Assembly: GCF_040274945.1 (NCBI RefSeq)
Contig: NZ_JBEMAR010000003.1
Span: forward strand, 88,994-152,993
DNA length: 64,000 nucleotides
Source: Carnobacterium sp.
GTDB lineage: Bacteria; Bacillota; Bacilli; Lactobacillales; Carnobacteriaceae
Reading direction: 5' to 3'
Shown piece after piece: positions 3,614-13,975 of the stretch. Both the position numbers and the translations under genes were made by a program. The notes beneath the pieces are model-generated. The model was not told the origin of the DNA. It saw nothing but the letters and a program-made list of their open reading frames with translations, and did no database searches. The first letter of the stretch is position 1. Every line of letters begins with the position of its first letter.

Positions 3614-3856
3614 AAGCTTTCCTTTCTTTTATTTAGTTTTTTTTAATATAACATACTTTCAATAACACTAAAATCAAGTTTATCAGTATCTTATTTTCTA
3701 TAAAGCCAGAATCTAAGTATAGCTTTACTTAGAATCATGTCATTCTGACCTTTTAATGTTTAAAATAAAGTTTCAACAGTTCTTTAGCACTGATGGTTGA
3801 GGTATAATAAATTAAAGAATTGTTCCTCAAAAACATACCTACGGAGGGTCTTTAAT

Positions 3857-4696
3857 ATGAGACAAAATGACGAAGAAACGCTCAATGATTTATATAATTT
3901 GATCCTCAATCCTGCTACTCGGGACTGGGAACGGTCATCATTATTGTCGACCAAAAACGCCTTAGAAGAAGGTGGAAGTATTGGCGACCAATTTTCAAAG
4001 CTTGAAGCTAAATTACGTCCACTCGCATTAAGAAACAACTTAACGCCTGATGTGACGGATTTTTATAACAGTATAACTGGAAATGCTAGCTCCAACGCTC
4101 AATTTGATTTTGCGAAACATTCCATTGATGATCTGACTTACCAAGATTCTGCGGTATTTGCAGGCGGCTGTTTCTGGTGTATGGTAGAACCTTTTGAAAC
4201 CCGAAATGGAATCATTTCAGTCTTATCGGGTTACACCGGAGGGCATATGAACCATCCCACTTACGACCAAGTGAGTGGCCAGTATACAGGGCATGTCGAA
4301 GCGGTTGAGATTATTTTTGATACACGGATCATACAGTATAAAGACTTGGTGGAGCTTTATTGGCAGCTGACTGATCCCACTGATGCGTTTGGACAATTTC
4401 AAGACCGAGGCAGTCAGTACCGCCCGATTATTTTTGTTCGAAATGAAGAACAACGGAAAATTACTGAAAAGTCAAAACAGCGATTAATAGAATCCGGCAA
4501 ATACAAGCGTCCAATCGTTACATTAATTGAGCCAACATCTGTATTTTGGCCGGCAGAAAACTTCCACCAGCAATTTTATAAGAAAAATCGAAAAAGATAC
4601 AAAAGGATTGAGCGGTCCCGTCAACAATTTTTAGCATTCCAACATTTGCAAGGTAAAATCCGGACAGAGCTTAATCATTTTACACGAAAACATTAA
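3857..4696 (+). CDS. msrA: Peptide methionine sulfoxide reductase MsrA with an N-terminal extra helical domain
   Basis: [29 protein letters not shown]. Start moved to ATG 3857 (GGAGG at 3843-3847). About 95 extra N-terminal residues. Confidence 0.9.
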
Positions 4697-4878: not shown

Positions 4879-5472
4879 GTGTTGGAAACAATTTTAAGTT
4901 TATACGTTACATTAATGTCAGTGATTTTTGCAGGTGTTGCCAATATGGTATTTTGTAAATACCCTACTTATCAATGTTTAAATATCCCAATGGATGCCGG
5001 TAGGATATTAGCAGACGGCAAGCGATTGTTTGGTCAAAACAAAACTTGGAAAGGCTTTATTGGCATGATTCTTTTTGGCGGACTCTCTCAAATGATCTGG
5101 GGACTCATTCTAAAAACTAGCCCTTCTCTTGAATCGCTGAATCTCTTCTATGACGTCTATGCAAATTCTATCCTAAACAATCTTTGGATTGGTTTTTTAT
5201 TAGGGTTAGCTTATGTCGTTTTTGAATTGCCCAATAGTTTTATGAAACGACGGCTAGAAATAAAACCTGGTAAACCAGCAAACAATCAATGGAAATGGTT
5301 CTTTATTTTTATTGATCAAGCAGATTCATTGCTAGGTTGTGCTCTAGTTGTAGCCGTTTTGGTTCCAATAAGTTTGGCTCAATTTTTCGAGTTTATCCTT
5401 TTGGGAGCTGGTACTCATGTCGTAGTCAATCAATTATTGTATTGGTTTAAATTAAGAAAAAATCCATTCTAA
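4879..5472 (+). CDS. CDP-archaeol synthase (CarS/DUF46)-like membrane cytidylyltransferase
   Basis: PMDAGRILADGKRLFGQNKTWKG, PNSFMKRRLEIKPG and IDQADS match CarS-like motifs; multiple TM segments. Confidence 0.75.
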   Translation: MLETILSLYVTLMSVIFAGVANMVFCKYPTYQCLNIPMDAGRILADGKRLFGQNKTWKGFIGMILFGGLSQMIWGLILKTSPSLESLNLFYDVYANSILNNLWIGFLLGLAYVVFELPNSFMKRRLEIKPGKPANNQWKWFFIFIDQADSLLGCALVVAVLVPISLAQFFEFILLGAGTHVVVNQLLYWFKLRKNPF

Positions 5473-5504
5473 TTATTTTAGATGTACAAAGAGGTGTATA
5501 GAAA

Positions 5505-8027
5505 ATTTATTGGACTTTAATAGAAACTGCAGAAACAAATCTGCGGTATGGCGGTAAAATAAACGCGTTGATCAATTTGTCTCAGTTAGGCCTTCAGGTA
5601 CCTAAAGGCTATTTCATTTCAGAAGATAAACTCACTTCACTATGGACTGAAGCAATCCCAGAACTAGTAGGATTAGAAACAACCGTTCATCCTAATCTGC
5701 CAACTTATGAAACGATTGTTCAACGCTTGGATCAGCTGAGTTTCCCAGCGGAATTAAATGCAGAAATAAGTGATCTGATATCTCTTAATAAAACCTATAT
5801 TGTGCGAAGCAGTGGCTTGATGGAAGACCAAGCATCTACTTCTTTTGCTGGACAATACGACACAATTGCAAACTGCACGACGACTGACGACATTATTGCT
5901 GCATTAAAACAATGTATCGCGTCTCTTTTTAAGCCAGCTGCCATAACTTATTGGCAGACGCATCAGTTGGACGTTCAAAATCTAAGAATGTCTGTCATTA
6001 TTCAAGAACAAGTTTCAGCAGTGTCCAGTGGTATTTCGTTTACTCTCAATCCTTTGACAAATAATGATCGTCAATTAACCCTTGAAGTAGTGAAGGGCGC
6101 AGGTGAACAGCTTGTTAGTGGATTGGTTACTCCTGAACAATTAACGATTGATTGGTTTTCAACAATCGGACCAACAAATTGCTCAAAAATTTTATCTTCA
6201 GGTCAGTTAAAGCAGCTTCAAGAACAGTTGCTTTTGATTGCGACCTTTTATGGCTATCCTGTCGATGTGGAATTTTGTTTCAGCAAAGATTCCTTATTCT
6301 TCTTACAAGCTCGCCCGATCACAACGATTCGCCGAAAAATCAATGAAGGCAATTGGACAACAACGAATTTTCGTGATGGCGGTGTCGCTGCGCAGCCTTG
6401 TCCAGGATTGATGTGGAGTTTATACCGCGAATCATGGCAGACTACGTTAGAAAAATTCTTGATTCAAAACAAGTTATACGATTCAACAAACATCAACCAG
6501 CTATCTATCAATCATTTTGCAAGACCTTATTGGAATATTGGGGTTGTAAAAGAAGCCATGTCACGGATACCTGGCTATATTGAACGCGAATTTGATGACG
6601 AGCTTGGCGTGTATAAAAATTATCAAGGAGATGGCTATAAAAGCAAGCTGACAGTTAAGACGCTCAGCCATTTACTAACTGTGGCGACTCGTATCACTAA
6701 AACGACTCAGCAACAGCGTCAAACAGCAGCACAGCAACACAAACAACTATTAGAAACGTATCAATCAATCGATAAAAAAATCCAATCGCTATCTTCCGCG
6801 ACAGATCAGCATAAAATTGAAGCGTTATGGGAAACTATCATTAACGATGCTTATTTGCAAAGTGAACAGACTTATTTCTGGCAAGTCTATGTCAATACGG
6901 TGCAGCTTTCAATGAAAAAAACCGCCTTATTGAAAAAATTGCCTTTAGATACTTTTTTTCAGCTTATCTCAAAATTAGGTGCAGTCTCACATATCCAACC
7001 GCTACGTGATCTGTATGAGATCGTTGATATTATCTTGGCAAACGATAAATTCAAGCAGGAATGGATGACAAACAGTCCAGTAGACATCAATACGCTGCTA
7101 ACCAAACAACCCCATCGTCTAGATGCGCAGCGGATTAAAGCTTTTCAAGCAATATTTGGCTATCATTCAAATCGTGAATTGAATTTATTGGTGCCAAGTT
7201 ATAGCGAAGACCAGCAGCTAGTTGTTGATCTGTTGAAAGACTATGTGGATCATCCAGAGAAACTCAAGGCAGCTCAACACTCCTTCTCACAAATACAGAC
7301 AGAAGAACAAATGGGAAAACTAATTGAACCCTATGTCTCTAAATGGCAACGTACTAAAGTAATGAAGGATATCAAGATGCTGCGTGACTTATTATGGTGG
7401 CGTGAAGAATTTAAAGATGTATCAACTCGTTTTTATCATTTGATTCGTCAAATCACTTTGAAATTAGGCGAAAGGTATTCCCAACTAGGGTATATTGATC
7501 AAACAGAAGACCTCTTCTATCTTGAAAAAGAAACGATACACTCTTTTATTACTAACCAACTTTCTCAAGAAAGTCTTCAAAAATCCGTACAAGACAATCG
7601 TATGTATTGTCAGGCTTATCGCCACTTTGTTCCTCCAGGAGATTTAATGGAGACAAGTATTTCCCCAGAGATGGAAAATCTTTTGGTAGATACTCCATCC
7701 AGTTTATCTGGAATCGGTGCTAACGATGGAATTGTTTCTGGAAAAGTAAGAATCCTGCTAGACCCTAAAGACATCCATCAGTTGCAAGCTGGCGAAATCT
7801 TGGTGACTCGTTTTACAGATACAGGTTGGAGTCACGCTTTTGGTTCCATTGAGGGTCTGATTACAGAAACTGGCGGTGTTTTATGCCATGCCTCAATTGT
7901 TGCCAGAGAATTCGGGATTCCAACGATCGTCTGTGCAACACACGCTACTGAAAACTTAAAAACAGGTATGACCGTTACAATGAATGGAACCACGGGTGAC
8001 ATTACAATTCAAAAAGGTGGATGCTAA
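5505..8027 (+). CDS. PEP-synthase/rifampin-phosphotransferase-like dikinase A (ATP-grasp, central domain, C-terminal phospho-His domain)
   Basis: YGGK..L..L...G..VP, VRSSGLMED..STSFAGQY, DVEF, LQARPIT, and C-terminal TDTGW and GGVLCHASIVAREFGIP. The reading frame is open from 5502. The ORF track starts at TTG 5568; the probable start is ATT 5505. Confidence 0.85.
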   Translation: MYWTLIETAETNLRYGGKINALINLSQLGLQVPKGYFISEDKLTSLWTEAIPELVGLETTVHPNLPTYETIVQRLDQLSFPAELNAEISDLISLNKTYIVRSSGLMEDQASTSFAGQYDTIANCTTTDDIIAALKQCIASLFKPAAITYWQTHQLDVQNLRMSVIIQEQVSAVSSGISFTLNPLTNNDRQLTLEVVKGAGEQLVSGLVTPEQLTIDWFSTIGPTNCSKILSSGQLKQLQEQLLLIATFYGYPVDVEFCFSKDSLFFLQARPITTIRRKINEGNWTTTNFRDGGVAAQPCPGLMWSLYRESWQTTLEKFLIQNKLYDSTNINQLSINHFARPYWNIGVVKEAMSRIPGYIEREFDDELGVYKNYQGDGYKSKLTVKTLSHLLTVATRITKTTQQQRQTAAQQHKQLLETYQSIDKKIQSLSSATDQHKIEALWETIINDAYLQSEQTYFWQVYVNTVQLSMKKTALLKKLPLDTFFQLISKLGAVSHIQPLRDLYEIVDIILANDKFKQEWMTNSPVDINTLLTKQPHRLDAQRIKAFQAIFGYHSNRELNLLVPSYSEDQQLVVDLLKDYVDHPEKLKAAQHSFSQIQTEEQMGKLIEPYVSKWQRTKVMKDIKMLRDLLWWREEFKDVSTRFYHLIRQITLKLGERYSQLGYIDQTEDLFYLEKETIHSFITNQLSQESLQKSVQDNRMYCQAYRHFVPPGDLMETSISPEMENLLVDTPSSLSGIGANDGIVSGKVRILLDPKDIHQLQAGEILVTRFTDTGWSHAFGSIEGLITETGGVLCHASIVAREFGIPTIVCATHATENLKTGMTVTMNGTTGDITIQKGGC

Positions 8028-8638
8028 AAATGTTTATTGGAGAATATGGAAAATTTATCTATTTAACTTACTTTGGGACAGCCCTGTCGTTAGTAGCGAT
8101 GCATTTTATCATTCAAGGTGAAATGATCTGGGCGATGAGCTGCTTTATTGTGAGCGGACTTTGTGATTTATTTGATGGCATGGTTGCGCGTTCTTTTGAA
8201 AGAACAAAAGCGCAAGAACAATTTGGTGTGGAGATCGATACCCTTTGCGATATGATCAGTTTTGCGGCATTGCCCGCAGTTTTATTGATCGCACAAGGCC
8301 GGTTTCCTTTAATGAACATTTTTTTAGCTATTATTTATGTCATCACTGCGGTTACAAGACTGGCTTATTTCAATCGTGAAACGAAAGAAAATTTAGCAGA
8401 AAGAGCTACTTATTTCCGGGGAGTTCCGGTTACCTATGGTGCACTTGTTTTTCCGGTCGGTTACTTGGTAAGTGAAGGATTTTCAAGTGGCAGTTTTCAA
8501 TCTGTTCTTCTACTGCTTGCTCCTATAATGGCTTTTCTATTCATCTGGGACATTAAGATTCCTAAACCCAATCGTGTAATGTACCTCTTTTTCCTAGGAC
8601 TAGCGCTTGTAACGTTGTTCGGATTATGGAGATTGTAG
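8021..8638 (+). CDS. CDP-alcohol phosphatidyltransferase (PssA-like)
   Basis: Signature CDLFDGMVAR...FGVEIDTLCD and RLAYFN...FRGVP. Confidence 0.85.
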   Translation: MLKMFIGEYGKFIYLTYFGTALSLVAMHFIIQGEMIWAMSCFIVSGLCDLFDGMVARSFERTKAQEQFGVEIDTLCDMISFAALPAVLLIAQGRFPLMNIFLAIIYVITAVTRLAYFNRETKENLAERATYFRGVPVTYGALVFPVGYLVSEGFSSGSFQSVLLLLAPIMAFLFIWDIKIPKPNRVMYLFFLGLALVTLFGLWRL

Positions 8639-8639
8639 T

Positions 8640-9506
8640 ATGCCAAAAGTCTATCAACGTGAAACGAAATCGATTACTGAACCTAAGGAATATCAAGCAG
8701 CATGGTTAAAACGATTGTATTTAACAAAGTGGGGAAACATTTTGCTTTTCGTAGTCACTTCCCCATTCTTTTCCATCGTATGGACGGCTATTGACCATAC
8801 CCGATTTTCTAAAAATAAAGTTGCTCGGTTCACCAAAGAGTACGGTATCAACATAAACGATTACGAATCTGCAAACTATAGATCTTTTGCAGCATTCTTT
8901 ATCCGCAAATTAAAAGCGGCAAACATTCAAGTAAGTCCGTCTTATCGCGTTTGCGCTGTTGCGCAAGCGAAACTATTAGTCGTCCCCATTCAGAGTGATC
9001 AGACCTTTGCCATCAAAGGGCAGAATTATCGTTTAGAAGACATTCTTCAAGACCGTTCTTCAGCTGATTATTACGAAGGCGGAACCTTATTTATTTATCG
9101 CTTAGCGGTCGATGATTATCATCGTTATTTATCAAGTGAAACAGGCACGGTTATTCATCGACGTAAAATCCGCGGAAAACTGCATACGGTCAGAGAAATC
9201 GCGCAACAACACTTTCAATTATTCAAAGAAAATAAAAGAGAGTATTGTCTAATCGAAACAAAGAAATTGGGAACGATCATGCAGATGGAAGTCGGAGCAC
9301 TTTTGGTTGGCAAGATTTATAATCAACCATTCAATAATTATCAGCGAGGGAAAGAAAAAGGTTGGTTTAGCCTGGGAGGTTCAACCATACTAGTAGCTTA
9401 TCCAAAAGACAAGATAAATGTTGATCCAGATATTCACCATTATTCTAGTCTAAATATAGAAACACAAGTCAACATAGGGGAAGGAATTGGTCTGAAAACA
9501 TGTTAA
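8640..9506 (+). CDS. psd: Phosphatidylserine decarboxylase proenzyme family
   Basis: FFIRKLK, RLAVDDYHRY, EVGALLVGKI, RGKEKGWFSLGGST (self-cleavage GST). Confidence 0.85.
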   Translation: MPKVYQRETKSITEPKEYQAAWLKRLYLTKWGNILLFVVTSPFFSIVWTAIDHTRFSKNKVARFTKEYGININDYESANYRSFAAFFIRKLKAANIQVSPSYRVCAVAQAKLLVVPIQSDQTFAIKGQNYRLEDILQDRSSADYYEGGTLFIYRLAVDDYHRYLSSETGTVIHRRKIRGKLHTVREIAQQHFQLFKENKREYCLIETKKLGTIMQMEVGALLVGKIYNQPFNNYQRGKEKGWFSLGGSTILVAYPKDKINVDPDIHHYSSLNIETQVNIGEGIGLKTC

Positions 9507-10405
9507 CCAGATTATTAACTTATTATAAAGAGATGTACCCACTGATTCCGCGATTACTATTAGCGATCATCTACTTTTTTGAAATCTACTTTATCTTACT
9601 CCTCAACGTAGGAAAGTCAGATTTTTCAATAGGAATACAAGAATGGACCGGAGTTTGGACAATATTTACTTTTTTGATGGCACTTAGGATCGCAGATGAT
9701 TTTAAAGACTACGAACACGATCAACGACTATTTCCAGATCGGGCATTGCCTTCTGGGAGAGTTAAGAAACGTGATTTAGCTATTGCTTTAGCTGTCATGG
9801 TCACGATCACTGTTGTGCTCAATGTCTTCTTTATGAATAATATAGGCTGGTTTCTCTTTTTATTCATTTATGGAACCTTGATGTCGCTGTGGTTTTTCAG
9901 CAAAGTCAAAATTCAAAAATCATTGCCTTTAGCACTGGTTACCCATAATCCTGTGATGATGGTCATGAATATCTATATCATCACATTCGTTTGTTACAAA
10001 TATCAATTGCCATTGCTGTCATTACCTACTGTCCTGCTGGCATTTACGATGTATTTCCCAAGCTTGATATGGGAAATCAGCCGTAAAATAAGAGCACCCA
10101 AAGACGAGACAGAATATGTGACTTATTCTCAACTCTTCACTTATCAAAAAGCCACACGTTTCGTTCAAGTGCTGACAATCATTGATATTTTAACGAATTT
10201 TATTCTTCTTTGGAATATTTCAAAAATCGGTGTTGTTGTTCTATTGGCAAATGTCATCTGGATGACGATTCAATTTCAACAGTTCATTCATGATCCGACT
10301 CGTTTCAGTATCAAAGATCGAGTGGAACGCTATACCTATATTACAGAAACAACGATGGTTCTTTCGGTTGCAGCTCATCTATTTATCCAGGGGTTTGTCC
10401 GATGA
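9500..10405 (+). CDS. UbiA-prenyltransferase-like membrane protein
   Basis: Asp-rich RIADDFKDYEHD...PDRALPSG motif and about 8 TM segments. Confidence 0.75.
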   Translation: MLTRLLTYYKEMYPLIPRLLLAIIYFFEIYFILLLNVGKSDFSIGIQEWTGVWTIFTFLMALRIADDFKDYEHDQRLFPDRALPSGRVKKRDLAIALAVMVTITVVLNVFFMNNIGWFLFLFIYGTLMSLWFFSKVKIQKSLPLALVTHNPVMMVMNIYIITFVCYKYQLPLLSLPTVLLAFTMYFPSLIWEISRKIRAPKDETEYVTYSQLFTYQKATRFVQVLTIIDILTNFILLWNISKIGVVVLLANVIWMTIQFQQFIHDPTRFSIKDRVERYTYITETTMVLSVAAHLFIQGFVR

Positions 10406-12903
10406 AACAACTCACTCACTTAAGTCGTCATTTAGTAGGTTCAAAAGCGTATAATTTACATCTAATGAAAAAGCAGGGTCTCGTTGTTCCTCCTTTTTCA
10501 GTTTTTTCGTTTGATCTCTTTGATCAAACAGATGTACATACCTTCTTGAAGGAACAACAAGCAGCAGATCAAACAGGAAACGATACATTGAATAAATTGA
10601 GTCAACGATTGCAGCAGGAGTTTAAGGCGAAATTTTTGCAAGAGGATTTTTCAGCTATCCATGAATTTAGCAGGAACGCTTCTGACAACCATACTTACTC
10701 TGTACGCTCTTCAGCAAACGTTGAAGATGAGGCCTCTGCCTCATTCGCAGGACAATTCTCTACGCGTTTGTTTGTTGAAGCGAACGATTTAGTTGAAGCT
10801 GTAGAAGAAACTCTTTTGTCGTTGTATCAGCCCTCTGCACTGAGTTACTACTTGGAACAGGGCATTTCGTTAGAAGCTGTTAAATTATACGTCATTCTCC
10901 AAGATATGATTGCGGGAGATCTATCTGGGGTCTATTTTACTGCAAATCCTCAAGGGTTGTTGAACGAACACTTAATTGTTGTCGGCTTTGGCGTTGGCAG
11001 CGGCATTGTGGAAGATAAAGTGGATACAACGATGGTTACGATCCATTCGGATGATCAATTGTCTTACTTTGAAACATCTGGTGCGTCTCCAACCTTAACA
11101 GAGAAACAACAAGTAGATTTAGAAGCCATGGCGAAAAAAGCCACCGATATTTTTGGTCCGCGAATGGATATCGAATTTACATTTTTAGATGACCAACTCT
11201 ATGTTTTACAAGCAAGACCTATCACAAAAATGCCTACAGAACCGGTCATTATTTTAGACAACAGCAATATTGTGGAGAGTTATCCCGGAACAACGACTCC
11301 TTTGACTTTTAGTTTTATTCAAGAAGCCTATGGGAGTATTTTTAGAGGTCTGGCCAAACGCATGCTGAAAAATGATACACAGACACTTCAATCATTTGAG
11401 CCCACTTTTCAAAATATGATCGCTCAAGTCAATAGCCGGGTCTATTATCAAATCACTAATTGGTACAAATTACTTCATCTTCTGCCCTTTTCTAAGCAGA
11501 TCATCCCTATTTGGCAAGATATGTTAGGTGTTCAAGCCACCGATATCTCTGCAATTACAGTAAAAATCAGTCGCTCAACTCGACTGAAAATCATGGGACG
11601 CATCATTAAGAGTTTCATCCAAGCGCCTCGTTCAATGAAACAACTCGATTCGGATTTTGAAGCGATTTCTGAACATTTCAATCAAACGTATACGCGAGAG
11701 GCTTCATTTGAAGAACTTCATCAATTATTTGAGCAGATCAAACGACAAGTATTGGAACAATGGGATGTCACTTTGATCAATGATCTCTATGCGTTTGTTT
11801 ATACTGGGCTGTTAAAAAAAGTCTGTCCGCCTGAAGAAGTTCAAGAGGAAATAGCCGGGATCGAACAAATTGAAAGTATGAAGCCAGTGTTTGAACTTAA
11901 TAAAATCATTTATACCATTCAGGAAGAACAACATAGCGACTATCGAAAAATAATTGAAAGCATTTCTTCGGAACTTGCAGCTGATTTTATTGAGACAGAT
12001 TTGCATCCAATCACACAAGATATCCGACGTTTCATTCAACAATTTGGAGATCGAGCTCCAGAAGAATTAAAATTAGAGACGGCAACCTTTCGTAGTCATC
12101 CTTTTTCATTAATTCAACTGATCCAACAGCAATTGGAATTGCCGCAAACAGCGATGCGTACCGAATCTAAAGCAACGGCAACAAACAAATCACGGAATCC
12201 ATTGGTGAATGGGCTGAAGAAACGCGCTATGACAGGGATCAAATACAGAGAAAGTTCTCGCTTGAATCGTACGCGAATTTACGGAATGATGCGACTCATC
12301 TTTATCACTATGGGCGAGCAGTTGGTAAAAGAAAACCGTCTTGAGCAATCAGAGGATGTGTTTTATTTAACGATGACTGAACTTTTCGATTTGGCTAGCC
12401 ATAGAGATCTTTCAAATATGCAAACAGAGATACAAAAACGGAAGCATAAACGATTAGTAGATCAGCAATTACCTGCATTCAGCCGGTTGATCTATGCTGG
12501 AAGTATTTTCGAAAAATATCCACAAACGATCAATCAGCAGCAGACAGTCTCGACCAACCAGCAGGACTTCCAAGGAATCGGTTGTTCAAAAGGCATAGTT
12601 CGAGGGCAAGTTTTAGTTGTCGAAGATATTCAAGCCGTTAATGTTCAGCAATCCTATAATAAAATTATCGTCACAAAAATGACGGATCCAGGATGGGTGT
12701 ATTTACTGACCCAAGCAAAAGGGATCATTGCGGAAAAAGGCTCGTTATTATCTCATACAGCAATCATCTCTCGCGAATTAGGTATTCCTTCTGTCGTCAA
12801 TGTCCAACAAGCCACACAACAACTAACGACTGGAGAATGGATTGAAATAAACGGACAGACCGGCCTGATCAAACGTTTGGAGGATGAAAATGATTACTCA
12901 TAA
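10402..12903 (+). CDS. PEP-synthase/rifampin-phosphotransferase-like dikinase B
   Basis: VGSKAYNL, VRSSANVED..SASFAGQF, DIEF, LQARPIT, NIVESYPG, TDPGW, GSLLSHTAIISRELGIP. Confidence 0.85.
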   Translation: MKQLTHLSRHLVGSKAYNLHLMKKQGLVVPPFSVFSFDLFDQTDVHTFLKEQQAADQTGNDTLNKLSQRLQQEFKAKFLQEDFSAIHEFSRNASDNHTYSVRSSANVEDEASASFAGQFSTRLFVEANDLVEAVEETLLSLYQPSALSYYLEQGISLEAVKLYVILQDMIAGDLSGVYFTANPQGLLNEHLIVVGFGVGSGIVEDKVDTTMVTIHSDDQLSYFETSGASPTLTEKQQVDLEAMAKKATDIFGPRMDIEFTFLDDQLYVLQARPITKMPTEPVIILDNSNIVESYPGTTTPLTFSFIQEAYGSIFRGLAKRMLKNDTQTLQSFEPTFQNMIAQVNSRVYYQITNWYKLLHLLPFSKQIIPIWQDMLGVQATDISAITVKISRSTRLKIMGRIIKSFIQAPRSMKQLDSDFEAISEHFNQTYTREASFEELHQLFEQIKRQVLEQWDVTLINDLYAFVYTGLLKKVCPPEEVQEEIAGIEQIESMKPVFELNKIIYTIQEEQHSDYRKIIESISSELAADFIETDLHPITQDIRRFIQQFGDRAPEELKLETATFRSHPFSLIQLIQQQLELPQTAMRTESKATATNKSRNPLVNGLKKRAMTGIKYRESSRLNRTRIYGMMRLIFITMGEQLVKENRLEQSEDVFYLTMTELFDLASHRDLSNMQTEIQKRKHKRLVDQQLPAFSRLIYAGSIFEKYPQTINQQQTVSTNQQDFQGIGCSKGIVRGQVLVVEDIQAVNVQQSYNKIIVTKMTDPGWVYLLTQAKGIIAEKGSLLSHTAIISRELGIPSVVNVQQATQQLTTGEWIEINGQTGLIKRLEDENDYS

Positions 12904-13975
12904 TTCTTTAAAAATCATTCCAGTGTTTTCAGGTGAAAAATCAGAAACCGATTTCCTGCAATTCCCACAACGAATTTATAAAAAAGAGGAATTGATGCAA
13001 TCCGTCTCAGAGGAACAAGCACAGATCAGTGGACAGCATCCGTTGAGTCCAACCTATACTTTCCAAGCATTCAATGGTTACCAAGAGGGTCAAATGGTAA
13101 TTCGCGGGGCTCTAATAAAACCGCATCACTTGGAAGACTATTACTTAGGGTATTTTGAAGCAGTAGATGATGTAACCGTCATGATTCAGTTTATCCAAAC
13201 ACTGAGTGAAAAAGTACGAGACAAAAATGTGCAGCGCATCATTGGTCCTGTTCAAGGAAGTTTCTGGCTAGGCTATCGAATGAAAGTTAAAGGATTTGAA
13301 CGAGCACCATTTACGAGTGAACCGCACAATCCATCGTATTATCCGAAGTTATGGCAAGCGGCCGGTTTTAAAGAGGTCGAACACTACACGTCAAATTTTT
13401 ATCGTTCGATTCCACCTCAATATGAATCAAAAAAACTAGCCAAACGTTATCATTTATTTGTGGAAAAAGGTTATCGTTTTGTTTCTCCTAAACCAGAAGA
13501 TTGGCCAACCGTTTCGCTTGAAGTCTTTAAACTTTTAAGAGTACTCTACAAAGACTTTCCATTGTATCAAGAGGTTACAGCTGAACAATTCAGTCAAATT
13601 TTTGCCGATTTAAAACAAGTGATCGATTTTTCTATGGTGAAGTTGGCCTATAAAGATCAGCAGCTCGTTGGCTTTTTGATTACTTTGCCGGATTATGGCA
13701 ATTTGATTTATCAAAAAATGAATCTACTAAATCTAGCGAAAATTATCTATAAAAAATGGCGTGCTAAACGTTATATCATTCTGTATTTAGGTGTAGACTC
13801 TAAGCATCTGGGTTTGGGATTGGCGATGTCCTATCCGGTTTTCAAACAGGTAAAACAACGCAAAGCAGAAGTAGTTGCTGCATTGATCCATGAAAATACG
13901 GTAACAAACCGATATGTGACAGAGATGCAGGAAGATTCTCATGCTTACAGCTTATGGATGCTGGAATTAAAGTAA
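12890..13975 (+). CDS. GNAT-fold (YghO-like) protein
   Basis: IIGP, PFTSEPHNPSYYPKLWQAAGF, YLGVDSKHLGLG (motif A-like). Start at ATG 12890 with GGAGG 6 nt upstream. Confidence 0.6.
   Translation: MITHNSLKIIPVFSGEKSETDFLQFPQRIYKKEELMQSVSEEQAQISGQHPLSPTYTFQAFNGYQEGQMVIRGALIKPHHLEDYYLGYFEAVDDVTVMIQFIQTLSEKVRDKNVQRIIGPVQGSFWLGYRMKVKGFERAPFTSEPHNPSYYPKLWQAAGFKEVEHYTSNFYRSIPPQYESKKLAKRYHLFVEKGYRFVSPKPEDWPTVSLEVFKLLRVLYKDFPLYQEVTAEQFSQIFADLKQVIDFSMVKLAYKDQQLVGFLITLPDYGNLIYQKMNLLNLAKIIYKKWRAKRYIILYLGVDSKHLGLGLAMSYPVFKQVKQRKAEVVAALIHENTVTNRYVTEMQEDSHAYSLWMLELK

Follow-up and report, generated by a model that had tools for sequence, protein, structure and literature searches.

In a 64,000-nucleotide window of the Carnobacterium sp. 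contig NZ_JBEMAR010000003.1, two large dikinases, here called A and B, are encoded within one operon alongside relatives of phospholipid-synthesis enzymes. On balance, we favor reading A and B as a non-redundant pair of AMP-forming kinases with the rifampin phosphotransferase (RPH) architecture, acting on different substrates in a single isoprenoid phospholipid pathway encoded by the same operon. Both proteins have the RPH domain order with intact catalytic residues, they fall into separate clades, and they are conserved together with the lipid genes. Judged by their sequences, they are neither phosphoenolpyruvate (PEP) synthases nor specific for rifampin or prodiginines.

Each protein consists of an ATP-grasp domain at the N-terminus (residues ~1-275 in A and ~1-280 in B), an RPH-type helical central domain (~276-735 and ~281-725) and a C-terminal swivel domain bearing the phospho-carrier histidine (~736-840 and ~726-833). 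Pfam detects PPDK_N (PF01326) in A at residues 16-215 and in a second stretch (E 2e-50) and in B at residues 10-279 (E 3e-41), and PEP-utilizers (PF00391) at 761-831 and 753-821, respectively. In database proteins identical or orthologous to A and B, precomputed Pfam annotation places PF27448 (Rph_4th) between these two domains, in keeping with a central domain homologous to the rifampin-binding domain of RPH. Neither protein has a hydrophobic stretch of transmembrane strength, so both are predicted to be soluble. An earlier interpretation made from the DNA letters and open reading frames (ORFs), hereafter the sequence-only reading, had described two proteins of ~830 aa with this three-part layout and with both phospho-His motifs intact, and our domain assignments and carrier residues (H795 in A, H785 in B) bear it out. 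The two genes and their key motifs are as follows:

5505..8027, + strand: dikinase A, 840 aa, with an ATT start and the Shine-Dalgarno (SD) sequence AAAGAGGTG at 5488-5496
5550..5570, + strand: GGKINAL of A, containing K18, the ATP gamma-phosphate lysine (RPH Lys22), aligned with RPH GGKG
7395..7418, + strand: WWREEFKD of A, the central-domain phosphate site (RPH Arg666-Glu667-x-x-Lys670), from the HMMER alignment to 5hv2 and a multiple alignment
7872..7910, + strand: GGVLCHASIVARE of A, residues 790-802, with the invariant phospho-carrier His795
10402..12903, + strand: dikinase B, 833 aa, identified by Pfam, NF004882 (999 bits) and PDB entry 5hv2 (E 1.3e-40)
12244..12276, + strand: YRESSRLNRTR of B, the phosphate site R616-E617-x-x-R620, with additional conserved Arg623 and Arg625
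12739..12777, + strand: GSLLSHTAIISRE of B, residues 780-792, with phospho-carrier His785, from motif alignment

Residue roles in the ATP, phosphate and His sites of the Listeria enzyme RPH-Lm have been described by Stogios et al. (PMC4844700). When A and B were aligned with four RPHs exceeding the cut-off of the RPH equivalog model NF041857, the equivalents of RPH Lys22 and Arg117 were K18 and R101 in A and K15 and R102 in B. Common to both proteins are the ATP-grasp motifs SFAGQxxT, DxEF and QxRPIT, the central R-E-x-x-K/R site, where RPH reads YREYPK, A WWREEFK and B YRESSR, and the carrier histidine. G16 and K18 are invariant among 40 A-type sequences, as are W632 and R633 among A-type sequences; the nucleotide-binding residues of the B ATP-grasp domain are all conserved across 42 sequences, and conservation of H795 and H785 extends over 30-42 orthologues. 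With these residues intact, A and B are predicted to be catalytically competent.

The N-terminus of A required reassignment, as the ORF finder had called a TTG start at 5568 and a protein of 819 aa. The frame is open from 5502, an in-frame TAG lies one codon before an ATT at 5505, and the strong SD sequence AAAGAGGTG stands 8 nt upstream of that ATT. Because K18, the invariant lysine of the GGK motif, lies 5' of the TTG, we place the start at ATT 5505, the position at which the sequence-only reading had also begun the gene. At the same position the codon is ATT in a Carnobacterium metagenome-assembled genome (MAG) and ATC in Desemzia (L001, L002 9970-10075), and the A orthologues of Streptococcus suis, Enterococcus and Clostridia start with ATG; this lineage-conserved non-canonical start probably keeps A translation low. 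Separately, the A gene of a metagenome cassette (L011:3096-5600) was called as pieces of 82 aa and 737 aa, which may reflect a frameshift or an assembly error.

Searches of the PDB by sequence returned Listeria RPH as the best match of A (5hv1/5hv2/5fbs, E 5e-59) as well as of B (5hv2, E 1.3e-40). Structure prediction, which the sequence-only reading had proposed for both central domains, was run on A only and gave an RPH-like fold over the whole length: an AlphaFold2 model built from 40 sequences (pLDDT 90.5, pTM 0.89) matched six RPH entries in Foldseek over ~900-920 columns (5hv1, E 8e-37), which makes RPH the best full-length structural match of A. HpeI (9goj) was also among the structural matches. 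PEP synthase 2ols and pyruvate phosphate dikinases (PPDKs) aligned essentially over the ATP-grasp region only, the best-scoring over ~360 columns.

The same domain order separates A and B from true PEP synthase. PpsA and PPDK share with them homologous ATP-grasp and swivel His domains and the ATP-to-AMP dikinase chemistry, but carry the His domain centrally and end in a PEP-binding TIM barrel, features found in neither A nor B. In the E. coli PpsA control, PPDK_N spans residues 22-349, PEP-utilizers 386-457 and the barrel domain PEP-utilizers_C (PF02896) 478-789, whereas PF02896 has no match in A or B at E <= 0.01. On the PEP synthase model TIGR01418, A scores 217.5 and B 173.5 bits against a cut-off of 739.75. 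A true PEP synthase was therefore rejected for both proteins on domain order, in agreement with the sequence-only reading, which had assigned them to the RPH/PigC type and judged PEP synthase to be an incorrect annotation for them.

B nevertheless passes the model NF004882, named 'phosphoenolpyruvate synthase', with 999.4 bits against a cut-off of 850, and the public records of B orthologues carry this name. NF004882 evidently models the B orthologue group itself, and its name is contradicted by the architecture. The model and its relatives NF004881 and NF004883 are NCBIfam 'equivalog' models of that name that cover RPH-architecture proteins without a PEP-binding domain, and the Listeria RPH structures 5hv1/5hv2/5fbs were likewise deposited as 'Phosphoenolpyruvate synthase'. 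For NF004882 and the PRK06241 relatives this amounts to a systematic misannotation, in which a wrong product name has spread to B orthologues in many genomes; our B-type search gave >4,800 database matches. The genome has no PPDK_N protein besides A and B and thus no true PpsA or PPDK, so that the PEP synthase name on B distorts metabolic reconstructions.

RPH (RPH-Lm; PDB 5HV1, 5FBS-5FBU; NF041857) has the same order of ATP-grasp, helical substrate and C-terminal swivel His domains, but it is only ~20% identical to A and B, forms a separate clade and acts as a stand-alone resistance enzyme that phosphorylates rifampin at C21-OH, in contrast to the lipid-biosynthesis context of A and B. NF041857 has a cut-off of 999 bits, which A (254.9) and B (207.7) do not reach; bona fide RPHs from Bacilli score 1360-1506. 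The block 1 pair Gln336-Gln337, which contacts rifampin and phosphate in RPH (PMC4844700), has no counterpart in A or B: at the RPH HQQM position, A has AAQPCPGLMWSLY and B has PGTTTPLTFSF, within regions that read WTTxNFxDGGV...MWSLY in A and ILDNSNIVESYPG...PLTxSF in B. On HMM (hidden Markov model) scores, motifs and tree, a rifampin-resistance enzyme was rejected for A and B. Stogios et al. noted that rifampin is not recognised by the majority of clades in the RPH superfamily, whose substrates are not known (PMC4844700).

The prodiginine ligases PigC, RedH and HapC resemble A and B in their RPH-type architecture and in ATP-dependent activation via a phospho-His, and differ in lying in a prodiginine gene context rather than among lipid genes. 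Scores are again low, at 265.8 (A) and 233.4 bits (B) against a cut-off of 1300 for PigC (NF052631), and 240.1 and 208.8 bits against 1350 for RedH (NF052632). A further set of RPH homologues, HpeHI, CreHI and the phenylphosphate synthase PpsAB, has a substrate/His module that is charged by a separate ATP-grasp protein (PMC12167813). These systems consist of split polypeptides that act on phenolic substrates in a catabolic context, whereas A and B of the window are each a single chain; the separation of ATP-grasp from substrate/His polypeptides is seen only in the B orthologues of two rearranged cassettes (L021 and L022, described below), which have an HpeH-like layout.

A and B also differ clearly from each other, with 27% identity over ~780 aligned residues (E 2e-52). 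Inside either clade, conservation is as strong in the central domain as in the ATP-grasp domain, and the two sets of conserved motifs are entirely different, as the sequence-only reading had noted of the central domains in general terms. The basic motif of B, R616-E-x-x-R620-x-x-R623-x-R625, stands against R-E-E-x-K-D in A, and the conserved central-domain charges number 14 basic and 11 acidic in B and 11 basic and 13 acidic in A. In a FastTree phylogeny of 140 RPH-architecture proteins over 855 columns, the operon A proteins, the operon B proteins and bona fide RPH each occupy a clade of their own with a support of 100, and A and B are not sisters. The phylogeny proposed by the sequence-only reading was thereby carried out against RPH, with PigC/RedH compared through HMM scores and PpsA through HMM scores and domain order. 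Both the A clade and the B clade show the same split into a Lactobacillales group and a Clostridia group, as predicted by co-inheritance as a cassette. Separate deep clades, retention of both genes in every cassette examined across Lactobacillales and Clostridia, and differing central motifs all support the proposal that the two enzymes serve two different substrates or steps.

The operon comprises seven tightly packed genes on the + strand (4879-13975), and the gene 3' of it lies on the opposite strand. From A onward, all five junctions are overlapping or nearly abutting, with a 7 nt overlap, a 1 nt gap and then overlaps measuring 7, 4 and 20 nt. Only the sixth junction, between the carS-like gene and A, is wider, with a 32-nt gap. 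The span 5505-12903 thus includes pssA-like, psd and ubiA-like genes between A and B, which the sequence-only reading had passed over. Besides A and B, the members are:

4879..5472, + strand: CarS-like integral membrane cytidylyltransferase, 197 aa, operon gene 1 (PF01864, E 1.3e-18)
8021..8638, + strand: CDP-alcohol phosphatidyltransferase, serine-synthase-like (PssA-like), 205 aa (PF01066, E 7e-14), overlapping A by 7 nt
8640..9506, + strand: phosphatidylserine decarboxylase-like (Psd-like) protein, 288 aa (PF02666, E 5.7e-41)
9500..10405, + strand: atypical UbiA-family prenyltransferase, 301 aa (NF010118 PRK13592, 497 bits), overlapping B by 4 nt
12884..13975, + strand: tandem-GNAT acyltransferase, 363 aa, last operon gene, assigned by predicted fold, overlapping B by 20 nt

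A promoter and terminator scan within the operon was uninformative, with promoter matches no higher than the shuffled expectation. The protein encoded directly 5' of the operon (3797-4696) has an MsrA core (PF01625, residues 119-269), which comes after a domain of the Enterocin A immunity type (PF08951, residues 26-93, E 3.8e-17).

The CarS-like protein scores 75 bits on CDP-archaeol synthase NF003114 (cut-off 148), the best NCBIfam match of the PssA-like protein is archaetidylserine synthase NF038087 (79 bits, cut-off 240), and the Psd-like protein scores 220 bits on NF001941 (cut-off 371). The UbiA-like protein exceeds the cut-off of NF010118 (497 over 443 bits) and falls below the Pfam UbiA threshold (25.5 against 34.2); a profile of 11 orthologues found the Methanocaldococcus jannaschii digeranylgeranylglyceryl phosphate (DGGGP) synthase 6m31 first (E 1.4e-6), followed by chlorophyll synthase. 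Its first aspartate motif, D66-x-x-K-D70-x-x-x-D74, is intact, with R63, D66, K69, D70 and D74 invariant. The operon partners are thus the nearest bacterial look-alikes of the DGGGP synthase, CarS, archaetidylserine synthase and decarboxylase of the archaeal archaetidylethanolamine route, which differs in having neither dikinases nor a tandem GNAT.

For the 363-aa 'hypothetical protein' at the end of the operon, sequence searches of Pfam and the PDB gave no match even at E 10. Its AlphaFold2 model (pLDDT 96.2) matched the tandem GNATs 2wpw (E 3e-13), 7q3a, 5kf1 and MshD in Foldseek, with FemX and MprF domains ranking lower, and on this predicted structure the protein is confidently a tandem GNAT. 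Its family numbers 2352 representative clusters (E <= 1e-3). One homologue (P0273) is fused to an AMP-binding acyl-activating enzyme, and in Pseudobacteroides (L010) an AMP-binding gene lies 3' of the GNAT gene.

The genome is Carnobacterium-like, the best named relatives being Carnobacterium sp. 17-4 and Desemzia. The full set of seven genes, identically ordered, recurs in the Carnobacterium MAG, Desemzia, Clostridium felsineum, S. suis, Pseudobacteroides cellulosolvens, a JGI metagenome contig and Enterococcus, with all seven confirmed by tblastn at each of these loci. The cassette is sporadic: of 401 genomes sampled from across the phylum one has it, of 61 close relatives six have it, and 5 of the 8 genomes of the genus do. 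A tblastn search of PLSDB plasmids with B gave only matches of <=30% identity in unrelated contexts, and the cassette was not found there.

Rearranged variants tie the genes together over greater distances. One locus (L020:8001-16813) encodes a B-type protein (31% identity to B), CarS, an A-type protein (30% to A), a CDP-alcohol transferase, an ICMT/PEMT-type methyltransferase, UbiA and TatD. Since both dikinase types occur in this distant cassette, the A/B duplication predates the divergence and the five-gene core is ancient. L020 has no Psd and has the ICMT/PEMT-type enzyme in its place, and a carboxyl methyltransferase may there replace decarboxylation of the serine head group. Two further loci (L021 and L022) have the order pss-psd-ubiA-B-GNAT-carS-A. 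Their B proteins are 518 aa (L021:4771-6327) and 515 aa (L022:4892-6439) long and start exactly at the ILDDSNIVESYPG central-domain motif, such that they consist of central and His domains without ATP-grasp next to a full-length A. These shortened B proteins suggest charging in trans.

A Bacteroidota-like contig with neighbours of the type IX secretion system type (L023:5703-16229) carries a ubiA-like gene (34% identity) that overlaps one resembling B, together with a divergent homologue of the 363-aa GNAT, HMG-CoA reductase, a CTP_transf_1 gene and an MMPL exporter; A and CarS are missing. A second type of cluster, one lacking A, thus links B with isoprenoid metabolism. Across arrangement types, carS and A are adjacent in all three that hold both genes, and ubiA and B in 3 of 4. 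Still more remote A-like proteins occur on their own, as does the one from Acidobacteria in L005.

Based on this architecture and gene context, we propose that in each enzyme the ATP-grasp domain would pyrophosphorylate the C-terminal His, with loss of the gamma-phosphate, and the swivel domain would deliver the beta-phosphate to an acceptor hydroxyl (or phosphate) that the helical central domain holds. The conserved gene pairs ubiA-B and carS-A suggest that B belongs to the prenyltransferase step and A to CarS. B would serve the step resembling UbiA and DGGGP synthase (DGGGPS), probably by converting a prenyl phosphate into the prenyl diphosphate donor, which would suit its more cationic site, or, alternatively, by phosphorylating the acceptor. 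A would make a lipid phosphomonoester, which the CarS-like enzyme would convert with CTP into a CDP-lipid. The PssA-like enzyme would then add serine, Psd would decarboxylate it and the tandem GNAT would acylate the amine, giving an N-acylated phospho-ethanolamine head group on what is predicted to be an isoprenoid (prenyl-ether type) phospholipid. A and B probably cooperate physically, since the B retained in some lineages has no ATP-grasp domain; for this genome we think an obligate complex less probable, as B's own ATP-grasp residues are under selection. The heterodimer raised in the sequence-only reading thus gains unexpected support from two cassettes but is not favored as an obligate assembly here.

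Several points weigh against this pathway. The lipid substrates, the order of steps and the interaction of A with B are inferred, and the lipid assignment is guilt by association from gene context. The CarS-, PssA- and Psd-like proteins stay below their equivalog cut-offs and have family-level similarity only, and in the UbiA-like protein the second Asp-rich motif is replaced by an atypical, invariant W191-E192-x-x-R195-K196-x-R ... E203; with such partners, the chemistry may differ from the archaeal model. The 99.98%-complete genome contains no PcrB/geranylgeranylglyceryl phosphate synthase (GGGPS; PF01884), the enzyme that in the archaeal route supplies the acceptor for the second, UbiA-type prenylation, and we rejected a PcrB-dependent archaeal route on this ground. 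It also encodes three polyprenyl diphosphate synthases, besides two other UbiA enzymes, so that it is not evident why prenyl diphosphate should have to come from a kinase. The basic residues of B would fit an anionic acceptor, but this charge argument is weak. Deep nodes of the tree are poorly supported and come from FastTree alone. To our knowledge, no RPH-family enzyme phosphorylates a lipid or a phosphate monoester. Our literature search found no publication describing the gene combination of the cassette, and the Lipocone paper makes no mention of dikinases or CarS.

The main rival to two kinases with different substrates, which we regard as unlikely, is sequential salvage on one chain, in which A would convert a prenol (undecaprenol, farnesol, geranylgeraniol or phytol) to the prenyl phosphate and B the prenyl phosphate to the prenyl diphosphate, as plant VTE5/VTE6 do in feeding a UbiA-family transferase. 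The acceptor would already be phosphorylated (lyso-phosphatidate or glycerol phosphate), and CarS, Pss and Psd would act on the UbiA product without a further kinase. Such a scheme gives every gene a role without calling for an unknown kinase substrate, and it fits an ancient and obligatory A/B pairing, a more cationic site in B than in A, which is more neutral, and a UbiA-like profile nearest to DGGGPS, whose acceptor bears a phosphate. It also fits L023, where a CTP_transf_1 gene takes the place of A beside HMG-CoA reductase; the CTP_transf_1 family includes CTP-dependent prenol kinases. The persistent carS-A adjacency across rearrangements would be left without explanation, however, the host makes prenyl diphosphates de novo, and diphosphate formation by a His-swivel kinase is without precedent.

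Less probable still is that A and B form an obligate heteromer or phosphorelay; A's ATP-grasp domain would then charge the His of both proteins, and that of B would be auxiliary or regulatory. In its favor stand the 515 and 518 aa B orthologues without ATP-grasp beside a full-length A, and split components work in trans in HpeHI, CreHI and PpsAB (PMC12167813). Yet B in the window and in most cassettes has a complete ATP-grasp domain whose residues are conserved across 42 sequences and hence selected for its own use of ATP, and L021 and L022 are known from contigs alone, so that a separate ATP-grasp gene may lie elsewhere in those genomes. We consider it very improbable that A and B are xenobiotic- or antibiotic-modifying kinases, of the RPH-like resistance type or acting on phenolics, that only happen to sit in a lipid operon. 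Their closest characterised relatives are indeed RPH and phenol/hydroxyphenylethanone dikinases such as HpeHI, with HpeI 9goj as a structural match, but their RPH HMM scores are about a quarter of the cut-off, the rifampin-contact block is absent, their clades lie apart from RPH, and they are translationally coupled to lipid genes and co-inherited with them over deep divergence in four arrangements. Equally doubtful are PigC/RedH-like ligases, in which phosphorylation would turn an oxygen into a leaving group for a condensation, such as ether or C-N bond formation, without a stable phosphate ester. PigC has the same architecture and is among the higher NCBIfam matches (266 and 233 bits), and HapC/PigC chemistry is documented (PMC13534948). 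These scores are far under the cut-off of 1300, though, pyrrole-pathway genes are absent, and the operon already has a dedicated ether-forming prenyltransferase and a cytidylyltransferase that needs a stable phosphomonoester.

Returning to the two lipid-pathway kinases, a bolder version can be offered tentatively, as a possibility we would not bet on: A and B would be the first lipid-directed dikinases of the RPH superfamily and, together with the CarS-like and DGGGPS-like enzymes, would give Firmicutes a kinase-driven route, independent of glycerol-1-phosphate dehydrogenase and GGGPS, to a phospho-ethanolamine lipid that is isoprenoid (archaeal-like or glycerol-free) and CDP-activated. In such a route the ATP-grasp domain of A would be able to charge the His of B in trans.

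Our analysis places a known kind of enzyme in a proposed, undescribed pathway; that most RPH clades have substrates other than rifampin had already been stated by Stogios et al. What it adds is a specific candidate function, as membrane-lipid kinases, for two large clades of the RPH superfamily. If this assignment is correct, A and B would represent a new enzyme class in lipid biosynthesis, and Lactobacillales and Clostridia, including S. suis, Enterococcus and cellulolytic clostridia, would contain an undescribed phospholipid, a result that would bear on the lipid-divide debate through the bacterial use of archaeal-type lipid enzymes.

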